Source: Eledone cirrhosa
Taxonomy: Eukaryota
Assembly: GCA_964016885.1 (NCBI GenBank)
Contig: OZ024763.1
Coordinates: 19,964,001 to 20,028,000 of the forward strand
Direction of reading: 5' to 3'
Length of the DNA: 64,000 nt
Shown here one piece after another: positions 2,497 to 54,600 of the stretch. The notes below the pieces were generated by a model that did no database searches, was not told where the DNA came from, and saw only the letters and a program-made list of their open reading frames with translations. The position numbers and the translations under genes are program-made. Numbering within the stretch: position 1 is the first letter of the stretch; each line of letters begins with the position of its first letter.

Positions 2497-5405
2497 GGCT
2501 CCAGAATCCTGGAATTCTGTGACGCAAATAACCTAACTATCTGTAACACTAACTTCAAAAAAGGAGACAATCGCTTGATCACCTATAGATCGGGGGAACA
2601 CACAAGCCAGGTAGATTAAATCCTTACCAGGAGACGTGACAGAGTGTCTGTTGTAAACACTAAATCCCTCCCCCATGAAGAATGCATGTGTCAACATAGA
2701 CTCATAATTAGCGACCTCATAGTCAGGACGAGACGTATTCGACAACAGAAGAGGACTATCCTCAGGAGAAAAATATGGAAATTAAAGGACCCCACAGCCA
2801 GTCATAAATTTAAAAGCATATTACTTGATGCTTTTGATAGTAAGGAAGAGCAGTTAGAGTCGTACAATATAGAGGAACAGTGGGAATTCCTGAAAGTTAA
2901 CCTGCTGAAGGCGACAGATGAAACCTGTGGCTGGAGCAGGCCTATAAGCAGGAGGAGAGTAACTTGGTGGTGGAACAGTAAGGTGGAGAGGTCAATCAAG
3001 GCCAAAAAGCAGGCTTGGAAAGTATGGCGGGATGGGGGAAGTAGAGAAGACTATCAAGTGGCCAGGAGGGAAGCTAGGAGACAAGTGTACTTCGCAAGAA
3101 GGGAAGCAGAGGAAAGAAAGTTCAAGCATGTTCTACAACGCGAGGACCAAAAACGTGAGGTGTTCAGGATTGCTCGGCAATGTGTCAAGGAAAACAGTGA
3201 TATTGTCGGGTAGAAGTGTGTCCTAAATGATGATGGTGTACTTGCCATCACTGATGCTGATAAGAAGGTAGCTTGGAAGTGTCACTACGAAAGGCTACTA
3301 AATGAGGAGAATAATTGGGAGAAAGACAGTCTCCCCCACATCGACCCAATAGAGGGACCAGCAGTGTTAGTCGAAGGTAGTATAATAAGTAAGGCGACCA
3401 AAGACATGAAGACGGGCAAGGCGGCCGGGCCTTCGGAAATAGTTGCCGAAATGCTGAAAGCATCTGGAACGGTGGGACACACTATGGTCACCCGGATAGT
3501 AAACCAAGTCATACAGAATGGGGTCGTTCCGAAGGACTGGCACAGCAGCATCATCATTAACTGCCACAAGGGTAAAGGTGATGCCCTAGATAGGGAAAAC
3601 TATAGAGGCATTAAATTAATTGACCAGGTCATGAAGGTCACAGAAAAAGTAATAGCGCAACTAATCAGAGAGCGAATTGATCTAGACGAAATGCAGTTCG
3701 GGTTTGTGTCAGGTAAAAGTACAACAGACGCTCTTTTCATTGTACGACAACTACAGGAGAAGTACCTAGCTAAAAGTAAACCCCTATACTTAGCTTTTGT
3801 TGACTTGGAGAAAGCCTTTGACAGAGTACCCGCTCGATTATCTGGTGGGCCCTTAGAAAACTAGGTGTTGATGAATGGCTTGTGAGAGCTATACAAGCCA
3901 TGTATAAAGAAACAGTCAGCAACGTTAGAATTAACAACGAATATAGTGAAGAGTTTAGCGTAAAAGTTGGTGTTCATCAGGGCTCCGTCCTTAGCCCCCT
4001 ACTATTTATCATTGCCCTTCAGGCTATAAAATAGGAGTTCAAGACCGGCTGCTCATGGGAATTCCTATATGCAGATGATCTAACGCTCATAGCTAAATCA
4101 ATGGCTGAACTAGAGAAGAAATTCCAAACATGGAAGCATGGCCTAGAATCAAAAGGCCTTAAAGTTAACTTGTCTAAGACTAAAGTTCTAGTTTGTAGGA
4201 AGGAAAATAGGGCACCGGTCCCATCTGGGAAATGGCCATGCTCAGTGTGTAGGAAAGGAGTAGGTAGAAACTCCATTTTATGTCCTAAATGCAAAGTATG
4301 GGTACATAAAAGATGTAGTGGGATCACAGGTAAGCTAACTAAGAATATAGATTTTATATGTGGCCCGTGCTCTGGTGCAATAAGTAGCAGCAAGTGCCCA
4401 CAAAATACTAACTCATTCCATGGCACAGATGGTTCTATAGAAATAGTGGACAGCTTCCGTTACATGGGTGACAAAATCAGCAGTGGGGGAGGGTGCTCTG
4501 AAAGTACAGTAGCTAGAGTCAGAACGGGATGGAAAAAGTCCAGAGAACTTATACCACTATTGGCCGCTAAAGGGTTCTCTCTAAAAATGAAAGGCAGGCT
4601 GTATGATGCCTGCATACGAACAGCAATGTTACATGGCAGTGAGACCTGGGCATTGTGTGCAGAGGATATACGCAGACTGGAGAGAAACGAAGCTTGCATG
4701 CTCCGCTGGATGTGTAATAGTAATATACGTGAACGGCAAAGCAAAAACAAACTAAGGGAGAAATTAGAAATAAGAGGGATCAGATGTTGTTTACTCGAGA
4801 GAAGACTACGTTGGTATGGTCACGTGATGCGCATGAAAGACGACAGCTGTATAAAAAAGTGCAGGGCAATAAAACTAGACGGTAGCCACGGAGTAGGCAG
4901 ACCCAGAAAAACCTGGGACGACTTGATAAATTCCAACCACACACACACTTACACCTCTCCAAGACAATGTCACTGGACCGAGATCTTTGGCGCTACACAG
5001 TAATAGAGAAGACCCGCCTTACCTAAGTGCAAAGTGAAACCTACTACAGTCAGTAGGCACCTCTAACAAAATACACCCCATCCCACTACCCCCACTTCAT
5101 CCACACCACCCCTTTCAATGTAAAGTTATGTTGGTACCACAACATCCAGCCCGAAACAAACGAGGTAGTGTAGTGTCACGACAAAAAAACACACAGTCCA
5201 CGCTGTAATGTGGCCATGTAGGTAACACGGTAAAAACCTCCCAGTTCCACACTGTAAATGTGGTTGCTGTTAGGAAGGGCATCCAGCTGTAGAAAACCCG
5301 CCAGACAGTCCTATGCGAGCAAGACAACCACTCTTGCCTCAAGTGGGAAAACTCCCGTCCAAACCCATGCGAGCGTGGAATATGGACATTAAATGATGAT
5401 GATGA
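2497..5405 (+). mobile_element. RTE-clade LINE, 5' truncated and degenerate
   Basis: APE C-terminus (QHRLII), WWWN, RT motifs (KAAGPSEI, QFGFVSGKST, FVDLEKAFDRVP, YADDL), PHD-like CxxC insert, RLRWYGHV..GRPRKTW, (GAT)n tail. Contains stops and frameshifts. Confidence 0.93.
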
Positions 5406-22845: not shown

Positions 22846-25548
22846 AAGAAATGGAAAAATAATATACATAATACCAAAAATAGGACTAAATACATAACGA
22901 AACCAAATATAATATCACGACTAAAAGTTCATCAAGCGAACACCGACAGGAATATAAATCCTGAACAGAGAAAAATCCATTTTTTAACGTCAGGACAACA
23001 AAAACCGGAAAAAGAAAAACTCCAGGAGGAAACATACCCAAAACAACTGTACACGTAGATCCTAAAATAATTAATTTATCCAAAAGAGATCTTGACAATG
23101 ATGAAATGCAAATTCTGTCAAAAGGACTGAAATTCACACCGACTCCAACAGTCAACCACCAAGAACTGAAGGAGGATACCCAAGAATTCTGTCGAAAATT
23201 ACGTCTTGTAGAATTCTTCGCTGATAAAAGTAATGAGAGTGATGAATCACTAGTAAAGAATAAATCAAATTTCACTCCGCCAAAAGGAAGAAATATCTAT
23301 CTCGACCAATACATTGACATCCTGTCTAAATTTCCTCTTAGACGTAATACTAATGTTAGGCCAAACATTAACAAATCAGAAATGTCTGCACTTAAACGTA
23401 TACAAAATGATAAAACAATAATAAATAAACAAGCAGATAAAGGGGGTGCAGTTGTTATAATGGATGCTGAATACTACAAGGATTTGGTTGAGGAACAACT
23501 GAAAGACACAACATTCTATCATGAAATACCGTCAAATATAGACCACAACATCATGAAGAAGATCAACAACCTGGCTTCAAAATACCACAACTCACCTACT
23601 GATAAGGAAATAGACTACATCACCAATTTTGAGCCGAAACCCAGCAACCTGTATGGCCTACCGAAAGTTCATAAGTCAAAAGAAATACAACTGGCAGTAA
23701 GAGAACAAAACAGTGAGTACATTAAATTACTACACCCAAAAGACTTAAAACTTAGACCTATTATAGCTGGTCCAACATGCCCCACCCACCGTCTAAGCAA
23801 TTTTGTTGACATTATTTTGAAACCACTATGTATTCACATACCCAGTTTCATCCGGGATGATATCGACTTCCTGTCCCATCTTCCCAAAACCACGGAAACG
23901 AATTCACTTCTACTTAGTTTTGATGTGGTAAGCCTTTACACCAACATTACACATGATTTACGAATAAAGGCGGTTAAATACTGGGTGGAAAAACATAGAG
24001 AAGTGATTCCCATCAGATTCACAGCGCCATTTATATTAGACGCAGTTAAACTTATTCTGGACACTGTCTTCTTCAATGAAAAGAATTACATCCAAATTAG
24101 AGGCACAGCGATGGGAACGAAGTTTGCTCCCGTTTACGTGAACTCTGTAATGGGATACTTAGAACAACAAATCTACCAAGAAATAGAGGGAAAATATAGT
24201 ACTGACTTTAGAAAGTACATTGAAAAATCTTGGAAGAGATACCTTGACGACTGTTTCATCATCTGGACAGAATCTCTAGATACTCTGGATGAGTTCAATA
24301 TCCTCCTGAATAACCTACACCCATCTCTCCAATTCACAAAAGAGATGAGTAGGATCAAATTACCATTCCTAGATATAATGATAATCAAAAACGACACCAC
24401 CATTACCACGGATATATATTATAAACATACAGACACCCATCAATATCTGAATTTTAAGTCGTGCCATCCACCTCATACAAAACGCAACATCCCATACTAG
24501 CCAGAAGAATTTGTACCACTGTAGAAGATACGAATACCAGGTACAAACGCCTAACAGAACTAAGAGAATTTTTGCTCAAACAAAAATACCCATCTCTACT
24601 TATAGAAAATGGCATACAGCGGGCTATAAAAATACCTATACAACAACTTAGGACAACCCAAAGAAGAAGAAACCAAGAACTGGTCATACCATTTATAATG
24701 ACACACAACCCATGTCACCAGAATATCTTCAACACTGCCAAAGCAAACCTACCGATCATTGCTCAAAGTAATGAATTAAAAGACTTAATCACAGATCGAT
24801 CTTTGACTCTTAGTAAAAGACAGCCAAAAAATTTGAAGCAATTACTAACAAAATCAAAGTTTGACTTTAACAACAAAGACCAATCATTCACTGTATCTAA
24901 ATGCAATGATAGGCGATGCGGCACATGTCAATCCATACACGCCGGTCAATATATGAAAACAAAAACTGGAAAAATATTCCCAAATGCAAATATGAACTGC
25001 AAAAGCAGAAATCTAATTTACTGCATTAAATGCCCGAATTGTGAAGAACTATATGTCGGTCAAACTGGAAATGCACTATCAGAACGTGCACGGGTACACC
25101 GTCAGCAAATCAGAGACCCAAATGTCCGTCAGATACCCCTAAGTAACCATCTAGCAACATGTGGTCAGGAAATATTTATAATATTCCCATTCTACAAATT
25201 ACACAGCTCAAGTGAAATCAAGAGAAAAATCAAAGAAAATAATTTTTTCGATAAATTCAAACCCAAGCTAAATGAACAATAATAATTGTTTCTACTTTAG
25301 GCACAAGGCCAACAATTACCCAGTGCATTACTGGTACTTTATTTTATCGACCCCGTAAATGCTTAGGGGTATTACTTCTACTATGACTATGACTACGACC
25401 ATGTCGACTACGAGCACTAACAACAACAACAACAATAATAATAATAATAAAAGTGATGTTGATGATGATGATTACTAGAAAATGCTATTTTCACCATTTC
25501 TAAAAATAGCAAAACAATTGATGCTTTGGATAGGATCAATTAGTGGTC
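22846..25548 (+). mobile_element. Penelope-like retroelement (Neptune/Naiad-like), RT plus GIY-YIG, frameshifted
   Basis: KGLKFTPTP, ADKGGAVV, YGLPKVHK, RPII, SFDVVSLYTNI, GTAMGT, RYLDD, SCHPPH, CxxRRCxxC linker, IYCI..YVGQT..R..H. ORFs 23106-24500 and 24461-25282. Confidence 0.93.
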
Positions 25549-28719: not shown

Positions 28720-28798
28720 GTAGACATTACAATACAATGGGAGGAAACATAACAGTACCACTGATGATGTCACAGGTGTGTGATGAAAGAACTTTGAT

Positions 28799-35624: not shown

Positions 35625-36026
35625 GTTAGCAGTATCGGTAGAGCATCAAACAACATGCTTTATGGCATATAGTTATGGCCCTTTACATTCTGAGTTCAAA
35701 TCCCATCGAGGTTAACTTTGCCTTTCATCCTTACAGGGGTCGATAAAATAAAGTACCAGTCACGCACTGGGTCCGATTTAATCGACTTTCCCCGCTCCCA
35801 AAATTGCTGGCCTTGTGCCTATATAAGAAACCATTATTGTGGATTGGCAGTATCGGTAGAGGGTCGGACGCCATGCTTTCCAGCATAGTTACGTCCCTTT
35901 ACGATCTGAGTTCAAATCCCGCCGAGGTTAATTTTGCCTTTCATCCTTACGGGGTCGATAAAATAAAGTACCAGTAATGCACTGGGTAATTGCTGGCCTT
36001 GTGCCAAAAGTAGAAACAATTATTAT
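35625..36026 (+). mobile_element. Two stacked SINE family A copies
   Basis: Two consecutive bodies, the second ending agaaacaattattat ~40 nt before exon B. Confidence 0.85.
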
Positions 36027-36064
36027 CATTATTCCCATTTCTCTCTTCCCACCCTCTTCCTCAG

Positions 36065-36189
36065 GTGTATGTGGGGTTCAGAGGTATGTAGTGACAAGAA
36101 CTTCAAGCAAACCTACACAGACCATGGCGTTTGTTATACCTACAGCCAACGACACGAGGAACATGGTTACAGAAAAGTTCTTTCAACAG
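36065..36189 (+). CDS. DEG/ENaC channel exon B
   Basis: Acceptor ctcttcctcag and donor gtatgt. (S)CMWGSEVCSDKNFKQTYTDHGVCYTYSQRHEEHGYRKVLST(G) matches the CxWxGxxC...FxxxxTxxGxCYTFN signature. Phase-compatible with exons A and C. Confidence 0.92.
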
Positions 36190-36190
36190 G

Positions 36191-37395
36191 TATGTAACAA
36201 TGTTTATTTAATATGTAACAATGTTTATTTAATATGTAACAATGTTTATTTAATATGTAACAATCATTATTTAATATGTAACAATGTTTATTTAATATGT
36301 AACAATCATTATTTAATATGTAACAATGTTTATTTAATATGTAACAATCATTATTTAATATGTAACAATGTTTATTTAATATGTAACAATGTTTATTTAA
36401 TATGTAACAATGTTTATTTAATATGTAACAATCATTATTTAATATGTAACAATGTTTATTTAATATGTAACAATGTTTATTTAATATGTAACAATCATTA
36501 TTTAATATGTAACAATGTTTATTTAATATGTAACAATCATTATTTAATATGTAACAATGTTTATTTAATATGTAACAATCATTATTTAATATGTAACAAT
36601 CTTTATTTAATATGTAACAATCTTTATTTAATATGTAACACTGTTTATTTAATATGTAACAATGTTTATTTAATATGTAACAATGTTTATTTAATATGTA
36701 ACGATGATTATTTAATATGTAACGATGATTATTTAATATGTAACGATGATTATTTAATATGTAACGATGATTATTTAATATGTAACAATGTTTATTTAAT
36801 ATGTAACGATGATTATTTAATATGTAACAATGTTTATTTAATATGTAACAATATTTATTTAATATGTAACAATATTTATTTAACCCTTTAGCATTTAAAC
36901 TGGCTGTATCCAGCCAGAATTCTCTCACCCCTTTCTGTTCGAACCAGCCATAAATGGCTGCTTATACTTATGTTAAAGTATTGTTCTCAAAATAAATAAT
37001 ATCAAAATCTCATAGATTCGATATTATGTGAAATAATTATGTAAGATAAAGCCTTTACCGTGAAAATATAATAGTAAATATAGAGTAATGTAAATGCTAA
37101 GGGGTTCATATGTAACAAATGTTTATTTAATATGTAACAATTTTTATTTAATATGTTACAATGTTTATTTAATGTTATGATGTTATTTAATATGTAACAA
37201 TGTTTATTTAATATGTAATAACGCTTACATAATATGTAATGATGTTTATTTAATACGTAACAAACCTTATTTGATATGTAACAAAGCTGACATAATATGT
37301 AACAATGCTTTTTAAATATGTAATGAGGCTTATATAATTTATAATATATCTTGCATAATATGTAACACTGTTTTCTTTAATATGTAACAAAGCTT
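36191..37395. repeat. 21-bp minisatellite (tatgtaacaatgtttatttaa): ~33 conserved units, then degenerate
   Basis: Directly visible. Starts within the exon B donor and is interrupted by a MITE at 36884-37104. Confidence 0.95.
36884..37104. mobile_element. piggyBac-like MITE (second copy ~42420-42836, with a SINE A insert)
   Basis: ttaa|CCCTTTAGCATTTA ... TAAATGCTAAGGGG|ttca, inserted at a TTAA of the minisatellite unit. Confidence 0.65.
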
Positions 37396-37663
37396 ATCGA
37401 ACCTCTGAAGTCATCACCACTACAGAGATCCGACAAGCTTTTGATTCCAGAGTCGGGCTAAATCGATACAGATCGAACCTTGAACTGATCAATAGCAAAA
37501 TGCGCGTCACTACTCAATAAACGTAATGGAGGCATAACATATCGTGCTTTTTATTATTATTACACTCTGTTTAATACTACACCTCTATACTTAGTGGAAA
37601 CTACACATGGAGTGCTCTCTCTGGTCAACATACAGTAACTGGAGATTGTAATTGCTATATACA

Positions 37664-38534
37664 CAGAGTGAGGACGATATTTGTTCGCAATTTTCAACTG
37701 CTAATTTTATGCAAATTTTTTTTACGTCCGTTGTCACTCTTGTCTTCACAAAAACAGTGACTATATTTCCATTATTTATTTTCAGAATAATTGATTATGA
37801 ATAATTTTGAACCTCCAAATTTGGGGAAGAGACACGGAGTTCTTCTTGGAATCCACGTCGAGAGGACAAATAAGGAAATATCAGACTTTCTCAGCGTCAG
37901 CAGGAGAATGGTGTCTCATCCAAAGACGTGCCCAGAGTCATGCAGACAAAGTTTCCAACGACAACATTGGTCTTAGGTGTCGTCAGTAGTCAAGGTGACG
38001 TCATGCCACCTCAAGCTGAACACCGATGGCTACATCCGCGTTCTGAGCGAGGTAGTAAAGCCCTAGATCAACCAGGTAGCTACAGGTAGGCCGTACGTGT
38101 GGCAGCAAGACTCAGCGCCCTGCCATATCAACCGAAAGACCCAAGCCTGGCTGTCAGAGAACTTTGTCGACCACACTTCACCTGACATCTGGCCTCCCAG
38201 CTCGCCTGACTGCAACCCCCTCGACTTCTTTGTGTGGGGCGCAGTGGAATGAGACACCAACAGATCTAGCTGCAATACGAAAGACGATCTGAAGGCCAGG
38301 ATCACAAGTGCCTTTAGGGGCCTAAGTCAGGGGACAGTGACGAAGGCCTGTAGCCGGTTCCGAGGCCGCATTGAAGCCGTCATCAAAGCCAATGGCGTGT
38401 TTATCGAGTGAGATTGAAAGAACAAGTCATGAAGACAAACTGACCCAAGTTTGATAAATATATCTTAAAAAATAAAACTACTGTGTTATTTTTCCTAGAC
38501 AGTAATCTTGCAAACAAATATCGTCCACACCCTG
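37664..38534 (+). mobile_element. maT (DD37D) Tc1/mariner transposon, internally deleted
   Basis: TIRs CAGAGTGAGGACGATATTTGTTCGCAA / TTGCAAACAAATATCGTCCACACCCTG-TA. WQQDSAPCH..WPPSSPDCNPLDF, with 37 residues between the last two Asp. Confidence 0.88.
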
Positions 38535-38551
38535 TATATATGTATATATAT

Positions 38552-38890
38552 ATCATCATCATCATCATCATTTTTACGTCTGCTTTTCCCTGCTTGCAAG
38601 GCTGGGACGGGAACTGATTCTGGCTTGATTTCTACAGCTGGATGCCCTTCCTAACATCAACCTCATTTACAGTGAGTGCTGGGTGCTTTTTTCCGTGGCG
38701 CCTACACGTCCACTTTACAGTGGAATGATAGGGACCCCAGTCCCTATCATCTCATTTCTACAGCTGAGTAAACTGGAGCAAGGTGAAATAAAATGTCTTG
38801 CTCAAGGAAACAACACATCACCCGGTCTGAGAATTGAACTCACAACCTTTCGATTGCAAGGCCAACAATGCTCTAACCACTAAGCCATGT
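38552..38890 (-). mobile_element. SINE family B
   Basis: Reverse complement of a full family B copy. Confidence 0.85.
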
Positions 38891-38904
38891 ATATACTATA
38901 CCCC

Positions 38905-38936
<32 letters not shown>

Positions 38937-38989
38937 AAATGGGGAGAAGAATACTGCAGGTAGCACATGGATGACATGTAATAAAATAA

Positions 38990-39090
38990 GTCCCTCATCA
39001 GTGATTTGCCGACGATCATAGATATTTCATTGCATTAAAAATCATATACCTCACGTCGGTGCAATAATAACTAAATTAAGTTATTAGGAC
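38990..39090 (-). ncRNA. Candidate non-circularly permuted hammerhead, copy B
   Basis: GTCC-TAATAACT taattt AGTTATTA-TTGCA-CCGACG-tg-AGGTA-TA-TGATTT-ttaa-TGCAA-t-GAAA-TATCT-atgat-CGTCGG-c-AAATCA-CTGATGA-gGGAC. Confidence 0.7.
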
Positions 39091-39770
39091 AATTAAAAAC
39101 GCGTAAAGCGAGTGAGACAAGAAAACAACAAAGAGGAGAGCTAACCGTAGAAGGAAGGAAACAAGCTTCATAGTTATTCTGTTAGCATAAGCAAGGTGAA
39201 TATACGAGCGCTTAGAAAAAAGACCTTTCGTGAACGAATCCAATGTGAGAAAGAGAGAAATTGTTTTCGTCGCGAACGGGGTGAAGTGACAAGAGGAGAA
39301 ACAGTGAGTGAGTGAGTGGAAGTGTGAGGAAGAGTTAACTGACATGGCAGAGGGGGCGAAAGAAAGTAGGAGAAACAGAGAGAATGAGGGAGCAGTAAGA
39401 GAGAGAGAGAGAGAAAAAAAACAGAATCGCAGTTTAGGTAAATATATGTGAAAAAAGACCATCAAACCTGGTTGAAATGTGAGCAAGGAAGGAATTTCGC
39501 ACAGGTCTAACGGGAGGAAGAAAGGGTCTGGTCTGCGAATTCGGTAAACATAAGTTCTGTGAAGTCGCAGACGAGAGAGAGAGAAAAAAAATTCATACCG
39601 GATTCCTTCCTTGCTCACATTTCAATCAGGTTTGATGGTCTTTATTCTCTCGTTCACGATTCCACCGAATTTATATTCATAGAAATCTGGGACTTGTTTC
39701 TTTCTTCTTCATCACTTTCTGTTGCTTAAACCATTTTGTTTGTTTACCCTAGCGTCCCCTTTATTTACGT

Positions 39771-39871
39771 GTCCCAACGACTTTTTTTAGCCGTTGCTCG
39801 CACCAACCGGAGATATATGGCCTTTAAAGCGACGAAATGCCTACGACGGTTGGAAGGCCACTGATGAGGAC
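39771..39871 (+). ncRNA. Candidate non-circularly permuted hammerhead, copy A
   Basis: GTCC-CAACGACT tttttt AGCCGTTG-c-TCGC-a-CCAACCG-g-AGATA-TA-TGGCCTT-taaa-GCGA-c-GAAA-TGCCT-acga-CGGTTGG-AAGGCCA-CTGATGA-GGAC. Confidence 0.7.
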
Positions 39872-39918
39872 AAACTTTTTCATATGTAACCCATTTGCAG
39901 CGCCGCAGCTCCATTATT

Positions 39919-39982
<64 letters not shown>

Positions 39983-40161
39983 GTGTATGTATTTTCTCGA
40001 AAACTGTAGAAAATAAAGAAAAGAGCAATTAATCCATTAAATAGAGTAGTTTGGCAGTATATAACTGAGAGGTTCATTACTGTGTGTTGTGAGGACACAC
40101 TGGCACGTGGCTGACTCTTCAGGTTGCCACTGATATACACATGCATATATATATACATACA

Positions 40162-40197
<36 letters not shown>

Positions 40198-40253
40198 CAC
40201 ACACGCATACATATATATATATACATACATACCTATATATATATATATACATA

Positions 40254-40307
<54 letters not shown>

Positions 40308-40311
40308 CATA

Positions 40312-40353
<42 letters not shown>

Positions 40354-40357
40354 CATA

Positions 40358-40411
<54 letters not shown>

Positions 40412-40559
40412 CACACATACATATATATATATATACATACATACCTATATATATATATAAACATACCTATATGTATATAGGCTTCATATATACATACATA
40501 CATGCATACATATACATATATATACACACACACATACATATATATATATGTATATATAT

Positions 40560-40594
<35 letters not shown>

Positions 40595-40894
40595 CACACA
40601 CATATACACACATATACATCACATAACCCTCCCACACACACAAACTCACACACATATTACACCTTCCACATACACTACTATGACGTCCCCCTCACCCATC
40701 CTCCTACCACTACCTCCACCACCTCCACTACTACTACCAGCACCTTCACCATCTCCACTACTACTACTACTACCACCCTTCCTTCTCCGAATATCAGACT
40801 TGTTACCATCTAATACCAAATTCCAATGCCATGACCAATAGTTTTTCTCTAGTATTTCAGTTTCCCATTGACATTTAGTGTAGTAATGACCTAT

Positions 40895-41365
40895 ATAAGA
40901 GGGTCGGCTGAAAACTTCATAGGTTGACCAAGATACTCTCATGGAATGTGACCAAATGGGGTGTATTTCTCAACATGGTCCCCCTTGCGGTCCATGCACT
41001 TCTTCAATCGGTGTTGCAGTGTTTGGATCTCATTGGTGAAGAAGCTTTCATCCTGTTGCTAAAAAAAAAAAAGGGGTCATCAACTGCAGATATGGCATCA
41101 TCATCATCACTGCGATACTGTGGTTCCTAGCCGAGTGTGTTTTTTTTTTTTCACGTTGAGGAACAGATGATAGTCAGATGGGGCCAAATCAGGAGATTAG
41201 GGAGGGTGATCAACCAATTCAAAGCCACAGTCATGTGCAGTATCTATTGAAACCAAGGACTTGTGTGCTGGAGCATTGTTCTGATGAAACAAGACCCTTT
41301 TCATCAATTTTTCTTGTTCTTGATAGCCTTTCATAACTGCCTCACCAAGTTGCCATAGTACTTGT
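40895..41365 (-). mobile_element. mariner transposase 3' remnant
   Basis: Minus strand ends QHRLKKCMDRKGDHVEK, with PxSPDLAPSDY-like coding (cctgatttggccccatctgacta). TIR-like gagggtcggctgaaaacttc. Confidence 0.7.
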
Positions 41366-41971
41366 GGTTAGAAAAAGCTACCTCACTTACCGCTTTCGCA
41401 GGCGCCGCCGCTAAATCCAAATGGCCGGTTTCTCCTCTCCCACGTGCGTACCATCCAACTCGTTAACCGGGAGCTGCAAAGCTGACGTCCACCACGTTCG
41501 CTGATCATCGTAGAGAGGGCGACCTGCTGGCCCTTCCGGTCAAGCACCCTTCCGGTCGAGCACTCCCCTTCCTCCGGCCACCACACACCACACCATACCC
41601 ACAGTACTCTTATTTGATCTTGTGTCCTTCTGAAGAGAGTCAACAAACACAATGCCTTTTGCTCTCCCTGAATTAAAATCCTGCCAAGTTTAACTTTGCC
41701 TTTCATCCTTTTGAAGTAAAATAAAAAATACCAGTCCAATACTGCGTTGGGTCCCCTCCCCCTCTCTCCCCCCTCTCTCTCCCCCTCTCTCTCTCCCTCT
41801 CTCTCCCCCTCTCTCTCTCTCCCCCTCTCTCCCCCTCTCTCTCTCTCTCCCCCTCTCTCTCTCCCCTCTCTCTCTTCCTCTCTCTCTCCCCTCTATCTTC
41901 CTCTCTCTCTCCCTCCCCCTCTCTCTCCCCTCTCTCTCTCCCTATCTCCCCCTCTCTATCTCTCTCATATG

Positions 41972-42004
<33 letters not shown>

Positions 42005-42320
42005 ATTTCTTTCGTTAACTACTTTTCCCATCTTGACATTATAGTCGCATATATGTTATAGAATGCTGTTAGCTTCTTGCTAAAACAATCTCTATACCTC
42101 TCATTTATATATGTATATATATATATATGCGTGTGTGTGTATGTATAGACAGGGTGTCCCCCCCCCCAAAAAAAAATGTATACACATGTTGATTACCTGT
42201 ACATTACCTTGTGTATATATGTGTGCGTATGTATATATATGTGTGTAATAAAAATAAGCATGTGTGTATATCGTCCTGTATGTGTGTATACACACACATC
42301 TAATAACATATATCTATATT

Positions 42321-42363
<43 letters not shown>

Positions 42364-42831
42364 GGAAGAAATCAGCTGTGTTCAAACCAAGAGAGGAAAG
42401 GAAATGGGCTCCACCAGGTTTTAGCCTTTAAACTGACCATATCTGGCCAGAATTCTTTCACCACTTTCTGTTCAAACCAGCCATAACTGGCTGTCCAAAC
42501 TTATGTTAAGGTATTGTTCTCAAAATAAATAATATCAAAATCTTGCAGATTTGATATTATGTGAGATAATAATTGTTTCTACTTTAGGCACAAGGGAGCA
42601 ATTACCCAGTACATTACTGGTACTTTATTTTATCGACCCCGTAAGGATGAAAGGCAAAGTTAACCTCAGCGGGATTTGAACTCAGACTGTAAAGGGACGT
42701 AACTATGCTAGAAAGCATGGCGTCCAACCCTCTACCGATACTGCCAATTCCCCGCCCTATTATGTGTGATAATAATGTGAGATAAAGTGTTTACCATGAA
42801 AATATGATAGTAAATATGGAGTAAATGCACC

Positions 42832-43236
42832 AGGGTTAAAGTACCCAAGACACACTATATACCACAATGGTGTGGACTCTACCAAGTTTAAAGTACCCGA
42901 GATACACTATATACCACAACGGTGTGGACTCTACCAAGTTTAAAGTACCCAAGACACACTATATACCACAACGGTGTGGACTCTACCAGGTTTAAAGTAC
43001 CCGAGATACACTATATACCACAACGGTGTGGACTCTACCAAGTTTAAATTACCCAAGATACACTATATACCACAACGGTGTGGACTCTACCAGGTTTAAA
43101 TTACCCAAGATACACTATATACCACAACGGTGTGGACTCTACCAAGTTTAAAGTACCCAAGGCACATCATATACCACAATGATGTGGACTCTACCAGGTT
43201 TAAAGTACCCAAGATACACTATATACCACAATGGTG
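42832..43236. repeat. 52-bp minisatellite, ~7.8 units
   Basis: Unit gtttaaagtacccgagatacactatataccacaacggtgtggactctaccaa. Ends ~65 nt before exon C. Confidence 0.95.
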
Positions 43237-51621: not shown

Positions 51622-54600
51622 ATAATGTAGGAGGTGAGTTTTATTGTAGTACAATAAAGCAATGCAGATATCGGATAAGAAGCACTCTACAGTTTGTAGG
51701 ACTGGAGTATACATAATATATATAAGAACAAAAATTATAAATTAACTAAAATTATAAAAAATCTTAAATTCAAGAGATACCCTTACAAAGGACAAGAGCA
51801 CCTTGTAAATCTCAAGAACACAATTTCAAACCTAAATTCCTCAAAAAATGTTTTAGTCCACTCTGACAAAACCAATAACTTATATGGTATTTCCAAGGAT
51901 AATTATAACAACCTTATCCTAAAGGAACTTAGGAAAAAATATCGTAAAATCAACCATGATAATTTAGAATACATAAACTTTGAAGCCTCTGAGATTATGT
52001 CAAAACTTGGCATTGAAAAAAAGACCGAACCATTCCTCCCAAGAACTCCGAGTATAAATCTCAAGGATCACAAAAACAATTTTCGCACTGAACTACCTGT
52101 TAGATTAATCGCCCCCTCTAAATCAGATCTGGGGGTTGTTAGTAAAGCCATCTTGGATAGAATTATCCCACAGGTTCGTTCTAATTGCTCTTCTTTGAAC
52201 CTAAATTTATGGTTTGGTACTTCTGAAGTGATTAGCTGGTTCAACAAATTGAATAATAAAAACAAACTAAAATTTGTTCAATTTGATATTGCCAGCTACT
52301 ATTCCTCCATTTCGCCTTCACTTCTCAATAATGCTCTATCTTTCGCACTTAAATATTCTGACATCACCACAGATGAACTTCACATCATTCTCACCGCACG
52401 TAAAACCATCCTAGAGTTCAACAACGAATATTGGACCAGAGCCGATACCTCTAACAACTTCGACATCACAATGGGAGCATCCGATTCATCCCAATTGACA
52501 GATTTAATTGGTATCTTTATTTTGAACTCTTTGAGTCGGAAAATTCCTCAACTTCGCGGTGGAATTTATCGTGACGATGGACTCTTTACTATCTTAAATT
52601 GCAACATAGTTAACCTTAATATTATTAAGAACAATATACGTAATCTCTTTAACCAACATAACCTAAAAATTGAATTTGATAACAGCATCAAACTAGCTAA
52701 TTTCTTGGATGTATCTCTTAATCTTGACACTGGCCTATTCCCCTTACCCTAAAAACAATGAGAACCTAAATTATGTTAACTTTAAATCTAACCATCCTAC
52801 TAATATTAAGAATGCTATAGTTAGTAATATTGGAAAAAGAATATCTAGCCTATCTTCTAATAAAAATATCTTTGATGCTAACGCCAATTACTATAATAAC
52901 GCGCTTTCTAAAGCCGGCTATCCTGATAAAATCAAATATAGTAAAGAAACAAATTCTAGAAGAACTTACAGTAGAATAATTAATCATGATCATTCCAATA
53001 ACTTTAATAAAAGACCTAGATACAAAAACATAATCTGGTATAATGCTCCTTTCTCCATCTCTATTAATAACAATATTCCTAAATTATTCTTTAGTGCCTT
53101 AAATAAATGCTTCCCTCCCTCACATATCTATAGTAAAATATTTAACAAACACACCATAAAATTTTCCTATTCGACATCAACCAACATTTCCAACATTATC
53201 TCTAAACACAACAATAAAATACTAAATACTAAATCTCTTCCTTCCAACACTGAATATCATAATAATAGTAATAGTACTCCCGACGTCATTGTTAACTCTA
53301 GGCTAATTTCTGCAAACCCAAATACAACGTCAAACACAACTTCGCTAAATGTTCTTAATCCCATTCTAAATCAAGAAACTATTATTCCTATCGCAAATAA
53401 CTTCTCCAATCCAATTCCTTCTATAGATAACACTAGGTCACTCGTTAATAATCTCTCTAATCGCAATTGCAATTGCCCTGTTAAAAATAAATGTCCTCTC
53501 AACAACCATTGTCTTGATAAAAACTTAATCTACGAATGTAAAGTTATAACTGACACCAATTCCTTCACCTATTTTGGCTCCACTTCCACCTCTTTTAAAG
53601 CTCGTCTTTATAACCATCATTCGTCTTTTAAATACAAACTTAAAAGAACCAACACGGCTCTCTCAGAACTCATATGGTTCTTCAAAGACAAAAATATTAA
53701 ATATAGCATCTTTTGGAAGAAGGTTTCTTCTGCGTCTCCATACTTGAACAGTTCTCTATCCAAAATTTGCAATCTCTGTCTAAATGAAAAATTTACCATT
53801 ATCTCTAATTTAGATTCTATAATAAATAGACGCACTGACTTGTTTTCCATCTGCTTGCATAAATTCCACAAAACATTCCACAAAGTATACAGCTAATATC
53901 CAAATCTTTATCAATTTAGAATCTTTTTCTCAAAGGCACATATATATATATATACACTTCTTTAAAAATATACCCATCTTTCTACCTTATTTCAAAGGTT
54001 ATTATACATTCTATAATACTTGTTACTCATTCTATATCGCTCCTATTTATCACTTCCCTTTCTTCTCTTTTTCTTTTAATGTCTAACCCCTAATCTGTAC
54101 CTTTTCTCACTGTTGCCTAACATAGAATCAATTATTACATAATACAATACATTCTTACTCTATATCACCTTGTAAAAATCCTTCGTAAACAAACATTTTT
54201 TTGACGTTAGATTATTCATCCTCAATTCATTATTTTTTTCTCCCTTTCATCTAACTCATTCATGCTCATCTCACAATATATCCTTACTTAAATTACCTGT
54301 TGTTCTTTTTAATAATACATATCAACATTTTCTTTCCATCGCACATATTATTAAACCCTTAAACATCATTCTTAATACATATTAACTTTTTCTTTTCCAT
54401 CGCACATGTTATTAAACCCTTAAATATTATTCTTAATACATATTAACATTTTCTTTTCATCGCACATATTATTAAACCCCTCAATATACAAACCTTAACT
54501 TTACATTATTTTTCTCTTCGTTAATTTTCAAATTCTTTTAATTTATACATTATCTTCCAACGGTTTTCGACCTCTCTATGTAAAACAATATATCTTTCTC

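Follow-up and report, generated by a model that had tools for sequence, protein, structure and literature searches.

Can a hammerhead ribozyme keep its complete core when the elements of that core follow one another in reversed order and one strand of stem II is moved to the front of the molecule? The question is raised by two motifs of 101 nt each, A (39771-39871, + strand) and B (38990-39090, - strand), in the window, by which we mean the whole stretch of 64,000 nt that was analysed. An earlier note on this DNA had described both as carrying the full core in the order UH, GAAA, CUGAUGA, and they are present as described: each of the helices that it listed lies at its place in A and B, and H17 occupies 39817 in A and 39045 in B, the positions after which a cut had been predicted. 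On the basis of the analyses below, we think it likely that A and B are self-cleaving hammerheads of reversed order, with a stem II strand supplied from upstream and the ends closed by an extra helix, and that they reside in short non-coding units copied by a Penelope-like (Naiad-type) enzyme. The two motifs are laid out as follows.

39771..39871, + strand: motif A, ribozyme-like
39771-74/39868-71, + strand: helix X of motif A
39775-96, + strand: hairpin H of motif A
39798-802, + strand: 5' strand of stem II of motif A, which pairs with 39828-32
39803-08/39848-53, + strand: helix Z of motif A
39811-16/39837-42, + strand: stem III of motif A
39818-24/39854-60, + strand: stem I of motif A
39817, 39834-37 and 39861-67, + strand: H17, GAAA and CUGAUGA of the core of motif A
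39817..39818, + strand: predicted scissile bond of A at the AUA triplet, by analogy with hammerheads
38990..39090, - strand: motif B, ribozyme-like, architecture as in A
39045, 39028-25 and 39001-38995, - strand: H17, GAAA and CUGAUGA of the core of motif B
39044..39045, - strand: predicted scissile bond of B at the AUA triplet, by analogy with hammerheads

Inverted and simple repeats abound in the window, and the motifs could in principle be chance matches or an artefact of palindromic AT-rich repeats. First, a pattern for the core matched twice in the window (A and B) versus not once in each of 100 shuffles. Second, the pseudoknot-aware descriptor that the earlier note had proposed, built here from six helices, retrieved only A and B from the window and nothing from 19.2 Mb of Markov-resampled window sequence, and a relaxed descriptor had no match in 12.8 Mb of control sequence. 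Third, the likewise proposed search for homologs in the genome from which the window comes (G000, 3.0 Gb) returned thousands of matches, with next to none for reversed patterns: 1069 versus 0 for the exact pattern of family A, 5489 versus 2 for subfamilies resembling B (close copies of B itself number 7) and 896 versus 0 for a second lineage (lineage 2). The resampled-sequence and reversed-pattern controls refute a chance origin, to which we assign a negligible probability. Comparison with Rfam gave no relevant match in window positions 36000-43000 up to an E value of 10, and no match to any family at the gathering threshold for eight loci.

Read from 5' to 3', the first part of the motif comprises a strand of helix X, hairpin H, the 5' strand of stem II, a strand of helix Z, a strand of stem III, UH and a strand of stem I; after a linker of 3-5 nt follow the 3' strand of stem II, GAAA, stem III, a further linker, the second strands of Z and stem I, CUGAnGA and finally the second strand of X. 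The hammerhead core (CUGAnGA, GAAA and UH) is complete in A, B and the families compared, and stems I and III adjoin it with the A15.1-U16.1 pair. The strand 3' of CUGAnGA closes the separate helix X and not stem II: in 110 of 123 distinct descriptor matches, and in all eight families, no more than 1 bp joins it to the strand that precedes GAAA. Together, X and H (the GTCC/GGAC helix plus the hairpin) constitute a domain inserted between A9 and position 10.1. As judged from the sequence, stem II is supplied by an upstream 5' strand that has moved to the front of the motif; what the earlier note took for a pseudoknot is this stem II, with its 5' strand upstream of the cut site, and its proposal that a multi-helix junction replaces stem II would then have to be given up. 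The strand order suggests that the topology is a circular permutation of the cycle underlying the published types SGC and CSG (see below), opened inside block C between A9 and 10.1. Minimum-energy folds of A depart from this model; the folding program is unable to draw pseudoknots or crossed helices. From 26 relatives, RNAalifold recovered the nested helices independently, including U16.1-A15.1.

All helices are fully paired in copy B; in copy A, stem III contains one mismatch and one G-U pair, and the 5' hairpin a single mismatch. Two changes, at 39809 and 39813, are private to copy A with respect to its own family and create both the stem III mismatch and a seventh pair in helix Z, whose usual family form has 6 bp. 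The stem III extension recorded in the earlier note thus exists as helix Z, but its seventh pair belongs to copy A alone. Position 39828 is T in most copies of family A, which yields a 5-bp pseudoknot helix, and the family variants are visible in contigs from four of six sequencing runs. The window copy of A may be weakened by its private changes.

The structure is real and conserved across families. In eight diverged families, whose helix sequences are unrelated and show up to five pair types per position, own-family pairing amounted to 32/32 for X, 40/40 for stem II, 40/40 for Z, 31/32 for stem III and 39/40 for stem I; 182 of these 184 pairs form, versus 41-63% when strands are swapped between families, in registers that were set by us and that favour the model. 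Covariation, a further check put forward in the earlier note, was borne out overall in lineage 1 (26 hand-picked subfamily examples, comprising A, B and relatives), where 94.1% of cells are paired and 15 of 35 pairs are double-changed, a count reached by 1 of 500 shuffles, and where slid controls pair at 25-42%; for stem II it amounts to a single double-changed pair. Helix X is invariant in this lineage, and helix Z, which joins stems I and II, covaries at five of its six pairs. An alignment of 28 lineage 2 sequences is 88.6% paired, with X covarying at two of four pairs; its six double-changed pairs were matched by 228 of 500 shuffles, and helix Z is poorly aligned. At position 17, A, C and U occur but G never does, position 7 accepts U, C or A, and the other core letters are fixed, a conservation that is partly built in as the patterns and the descriptor demanded the core.

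How stem II begins next to the core bears on a different register, that of the earlier note, in which lineage 1 forms a stem II of 1 bp from the first base after CUGAnGA and then opens into a four-way junction. The stem II end pair directly before GAAA is G10.1-C11.1 in six of eight families, A-U in B and ambiguous in family A, and the ambiguity makes the register possible for family A; across lineage 1, C, U and A all occur at position 11.1, and its pair with 10.1 frequently departs from the canonical kind. Position 11.1 could pair with the base that immediately follows CUGAnGA, by G-C in A, by G-U in B and by A-U in a third subfamily, and the outer pair of the hairpin covaries (C-G 18, U-A 8). 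Other lineage 1 copies have A-C, C-A or A-A there, however, and the base following CUGAnGA belongs to helix X, and covaries with an upstream partner, both in lineage 2 and in the LINEs and the coral type described below, so that we regard the 1-bp register as conceivable but doubtful and retain the upstream strand as the source of stem II.

Non-circular hammerheads, which the earlier note attributed to the Weinberg group, were reported by Eckert et al. 2023 (PMC10085705), who, in the accessible sections of the paper, distinguish three blocks of the hammerhead (S, G and C) and found that natural type-SGC and type-CSG RNAs cleave. The core order of A and B is S, G, C, that of type SGC, and so the permutation is indeed non-circular, and the order by itself is not new. 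The cyclic order of types I-III (C, G, S) is absent, and A and B are not type I retrozymes, as their core order fails type I. With type SGC (HRIMA-1 and a variant) and type CSG, as presented in these sections, they have in common the order S, G, C, the 3-5 nt linker between stems I and II, stems I, II and III that mutually cross and an extra helix beside the 3' strand of stem I. Unlike in SGC and CSG, both the 5' strand of stem II and the strand that completes the extra helix are found upstream, and X plus the hairpin stand between A9 and 10.1, a place at which insertions reach at most 1-2 nt in the accessible text of PMC10085705. Stem II of the published SGC and CSG forms is contiguous with CUGAnGA, as their descriptor demands, whereas none of four sequences here matches it. 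By their sequence, A and B are outside type SGC as defined, although the block order matches, and the separation of CUGAnGA from the stem II strand would break the premise of the six-type scheme, stated in the same sections, that CUGAnGA is inseparable from its adjacent stem strands. Among described hammerheads, we found none with a whole domain between A9 and 10.1, and we found no full-text account that places SGC or CSG hammerheads in Naiads or in any animal genome, in a search that reached few subscription papers or Repbase notes. The permuted hammerheads in the accessible part of PMC10085705 come from metatranscriptomes and metagenomes, with one weak GCS candidate as the only one from the genome of a known organism and two metagenome sequences as the only examples of type CSG; here, thousands of copies lie in an animal genome, and non-circular hammerheads would thus be abundant in animal genomes, with an assignable job.

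We then asked what carries the motifs. The earlier note had placed them at the ends of a ~1-kb block set in (TA)n. The block and its surroundings stand, but it is not one element with two ends; it consists of a B unit, an inverted A piece and a second A piece:

38905..38932: (TA)n target, left
38933..39456, - strand: full B-family unit (515 nt) plus tail, 98.9% identical to a tandem copy elsewhere
39450..39601, - strand: inverted internal A-family piece (unit positions ~299-452), joining the B unit at a T-rich microhomology
39602..39921, + strand: 5'-truncated A-family unit (3' part of the 622-nt unit) with a long tail
39922..39979: (TA)n target, right

The junction between the B unit and the inverted A piece is likely a template switch, and the chimeric block suggests a single copying event in which the same enzyme used both RNAs as templates. 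The end of a degenerate DDE transposase-like sequence, seen by eye, lies beside the block at 38000-38536. The units are 497-791 nt long (622 nt in the A family, 515 nt in the B family) and non-coding, with a longest ATG frame of 75 aa in the A unit and 152 aa in the B unit; each contains one ribozyme-like motif, and they are arranged in tandem or inverted in (TA)n. An array of the B type extends over ~90 kb on C1 (G000 81.55-81.64 Mb; L077-L097, L343), with 515-nt units of alternating variants.

Several features of the units are those of Penelope-like elements (PLEs): partial tandems, inverted copies, a tail at a single end and a (TA)n target. The TA-targeting retroelement context proposed in the earlier note is upheld by 71 of 80 complete 3' ends of family A, which adjoin (TA)n at ~+67 or +105 to +119 from the cut. 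Of 91 distinct family A segments, taken from the first 100 listed sites, 24 are longer than one unit, and each of 17 inverted A pairs (17/17) combines one short with one long 3' end. PLE insertions with tandems, inversions and a tail at one end are described in the available portion of Craig et al. 2021 (PMC8557442), and Frangieh et al. (PMC11167929) explained the PLE tail by two internal initiation sites and found that insertion in vitro did not require hammerhead cleavage; the two-ended tail signature of the A units agrees with both that tail and the two initiation sites. Animal non-LTR retrozymes (PMC7229834; preprint 10.64898/2026.07.22.740005), as far as these sources are accessible, likewise consist of non-coding units, each with a single hammerhead, that occur as anything from monomers to long tandem arrays, and have been proposed to be non-autonomous PLE derivatives (Cervera & de la Pena 2020, PMC7229834; Li, Clavereau & Pollet 2026). 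The A and B units are, in our judgement, probably PLE-mobilised and retrozyme-like. They differ from the retrozymes of those accounts in length (497-791 nt versus 170-400 nt in PMC7229834) and in their non-circular form, whereas retrozymes are defined and searched by type I descriptors; searches with such descriptors miss units of this form, and retrozymes would be undercounted.

Which PLE could be involved? According to the available part of Craig, Yushenova, Rodriguez & Arkhipova 2021 (PMC8557442), Naiads target (TA)n and lack canonical hammerheads, and eight of them are marked 'HHR_half_core', with no structure given and a second half 35-50 nt away. A and B share with this Naiad clade the (TA)n target, insertions that are tandem or inverted and a tail confined to one end; unlike Naiads, they encode no protein and have no sequence homology to the Naiad remnants of G000. 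We read by eye the last 280-350 nt of 43 of the ~53 Naiad consensi in the accessible supplement of PMC8557442 (names by file order), and the six-helix split form was seen in eight of the 43 3' ends (Obim, Ovul, Esco, Amil, Aacu, Anas, Bfor and 2_Movir), from ctenophores, corals, jellyfish and cephalopods. Flaws in this reading are one stem II mismatch in Esco, a short stem I in Bfor and an X partner out of view in 2_Movir. The nematode Naiads 2_Nbra, 3_Nbra, Hcon, Hpol and Asuum (File S5) have, by eye, a complete type CSG with contiguous stem II; an ordinary SGC form whose stem II is weak is apparent in Ptep, the order is partly visible in Smim and 4_Dst, and no such core was seen in the 3' part of the remaining consensi read. 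Twister-like motifs are discernible by eye in the same supplement in the 3' ends of Naiad-1_Movir and bivalve Naiads, where other Naiads hold the permuted hammerhead.

An intact Naiad was not found in G000, where 61 of 111 candidates matched and the longest open frame was 321 aa. The remnants have an N-terminal GIY-YIG motif and DKA, and their protein resembles the published Octopus Naiad by eye, which makes an octopod the probable source of G000; Pfam did not recognise the remnant piece submitted to it, and a Naiad RT motif pattern gave nine matches versus eight in the control, four of which proved to be remnants. Compared with 20 Naiad remnant loci and with the LINE introduced below, the A, B and lineage 2 units have no genuine similarity in sequence. 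In four of these 20 remnants (L183, L184, L185 and L198), an S-G-C core that is not clearly of the split type was seen by eye in the 3' UTR, with stems I and III intact and a different outer architecture; CUGAUGA is intact only in L198. Naiads were found in G000 only as dead remnants, and no intact partner element of A and B was found among them. A pattern for the Octopus-Naiad-type ribozyme had a single match in G000, which is not the motif.

The split fold also accompanies R2-like LINEs. In L352 (Ga0224510_10014921), it lies at 760-890 on the minus strand, directly behind an ORF of 994 aa whose product has RVT_1 and zf-RVT domains and also a motif of the RLE (restriction-like endonuclease) type, and relatives of L352 in G000 (L465-L494, L495) have the same fold directly behind the stop codon, in 22 of 30 loci by eye (the descriptor passes 9 of 30). 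These RLE-type LINEs form 3.6-kb tandems and in G000 are inserted into (TA)n; judging from their motifs, the L352 and L465-L494 elements may belong to the HERO clade. A ribozyme at the boundary of tandem or co-transcribed units could define the RNA 5' end, as in the R2-superfamily LINEs with 5' HDV-like ribozymes described in the accessible text of PMC6765202, but unlike in those the RLE elements here place a rearranged hammerhead directly behind the ORF. Could A and B, as true ribozymes, be mobilised by the LINE of G000 and not by a PLE? Besides the shared six-helix fold, the (TA)n at its end and its tandems, the LINE resembles lineage 1 in stem I and linker, and no intact Naiad was found in G000. 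We nevertheless consider LINE mobilisation improbable: the inverted A pairs with their two different 3' ends bear the PLE signature, whereas the LINE copies seen (few, with 14 exact matches) have one 3' end; the LINE tail is without homology to A or B; and other PLE clades with ORFs are present in the window. Mobilisation of A and B by a PLE accordingly stays our preferred reading.

A pattern scan of metagenomes returned at least 119 matches, among them ~69 of a coral-type family and three from two further true families; most of the other matches listed look like chance matches in bacterial DNA. The coral-type family is close to the Acropora form and has compensatory changes relative to it, and the descriptor passes 19 of 121 loci among the matches listed. 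In viral contigs, two pattern matches were found, both inside genes and neither passing the descriptor, and no relative of the RLE protein was found there.

If the motifs cleave, their copies should tend to begin at the predicted cut. Among the matches listed, the coral-type family comprises 69 loci, mostly from one assembly, and with six at contig edges left out, 37 of 63 copies have their 5' end 0-7 nt before the pattern, a range that starts at the predicted cut and lies downstream of it, in a search to which ends 3' of the pattern are invisible. In these matches, four 5' ends fall in the next 8 nt upstream and at most two in each later bin up to 111 nt, and nine copies span the full 120 nt tested. 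The flanks of coral-type copies are not TA repeats, and a folding stall at the cut site is unlikely, since the partner strands would already have been copied. Lineage 2 has 11 of 29 breakpoints in the first 12 of 72 nt (p 0.005), two of the breakpoints being fold-back inversions and others including internal deletions. In family A, 10 of 91 5' ends lie at -6 to +17 versus one at -30 to -7, and 79 of the 91 segments cross the cut site; this pile-up is weak because further peaks (14 ends at -80 to -109 and 11 at -290 to -319) are equally high and the site has TATA microhomology to the target. One of 14 copies of the G000 LINE starts near the cut, too few copies to tell. The piling up of 5' ends at the predicted cut may be taken as indirect evidence of cleavage in vivo.

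Could the fold instead be a conserved, non-catalytic recognition structure for the reverse transcriptase (RT), with hammerhead-like letters and a stem II strand locked in another helix? The near absence of pairing between the strands after CUGAnGA and before GAAA (110 of 123 matches, eight of eight families) would fit such a structure, and the motif sits where 3' recognition signals sit. Yet the upstream strand provides a stem II, with G10.1-C11.1 in six of eight families; positions 7 and 17 vary by hammerhead rules; coral-type 5' ends, among the matches listed, drop sharply at the predicted bond; the core accompanies enzymes as unrelated as those of Naiads and of RLE-type elements, a sharing that a signal for protein binding would not require; and the nematode Naiads, by eye and in the accessible supplement, keep the same cyclic order with a contiguous stem II. 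We rate a purely structural role as improbable, and the conserved structure, on this analysis, as likely an active ribozyme.

On the basis that A and B cleave, we hypothesize that read-through transcripts of tandem units would be cut once per unit, which would give unit-length RNA headed by the ribozyme's 3' half and by the tail. Nicked (TA)n DNA would then prime reverse transcription at CAUAU, ~67 or ~105-115 nt downstream of the cut. On cut linear RNA, reverse transcription would fall off the template at its cut end and yield short copies of the tail only, whereas on uncut multimers or ligated circles read-through would generate copies longer than one unit.

Beyond this locus, we lean towards a wider interpretation, in which the split form is an active seventh topology that makes up, together with ordinary SGC and CSG, a widespread and overlooked family of reversed-order hammerheads in animal retroelements (Naiads from ctenophores to cephalopods and nematodes, R2-like LINEs and thousands of retrozyme-like units), and in which the pile-ups of insertion ends record cleavage in vivo. 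If this is true, the hammerhead thought to be missing from Naiads is there in permuted form, a candidate answer to the puzzle that Naiads, dominant in many invertebrate genomes, seemed hammerhead-less but for 'half cores'.

Several observations were made on the side. The coral-type unit of L360 runs on into a Naiad-like 5' start, by eye against the published consensus. On the minus strand of L360, ~4000-4500 from the 5' end, an insertion begins at the predicted cut, runs for one unit and passes over the second ribozyme between its two X strands, as though the RT had jumped across helix X. L442 (JGI24022J15233_10065588) represents a further split-core family with helix sequences of its own. The window itself contains a Penelope-like ORF in two pieces at 22965-25279 on the + strand (RT, then GIY-YIG; Pfam) and a second broken Penelope-like ORF at 51700-53893 on the + strand, seen by eye and without a Pfam match. 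It also contains hammerhead-like cores in canonical order at 28761 (+), 49612 (+), 59246 (+), 6109 (-), 28488 (+) and 58459 (-). The first four lie ~50-90 nt downstream of a common ATGGCG start, three of them beside a TA/A run, and the last two pass a simple three-stem test.
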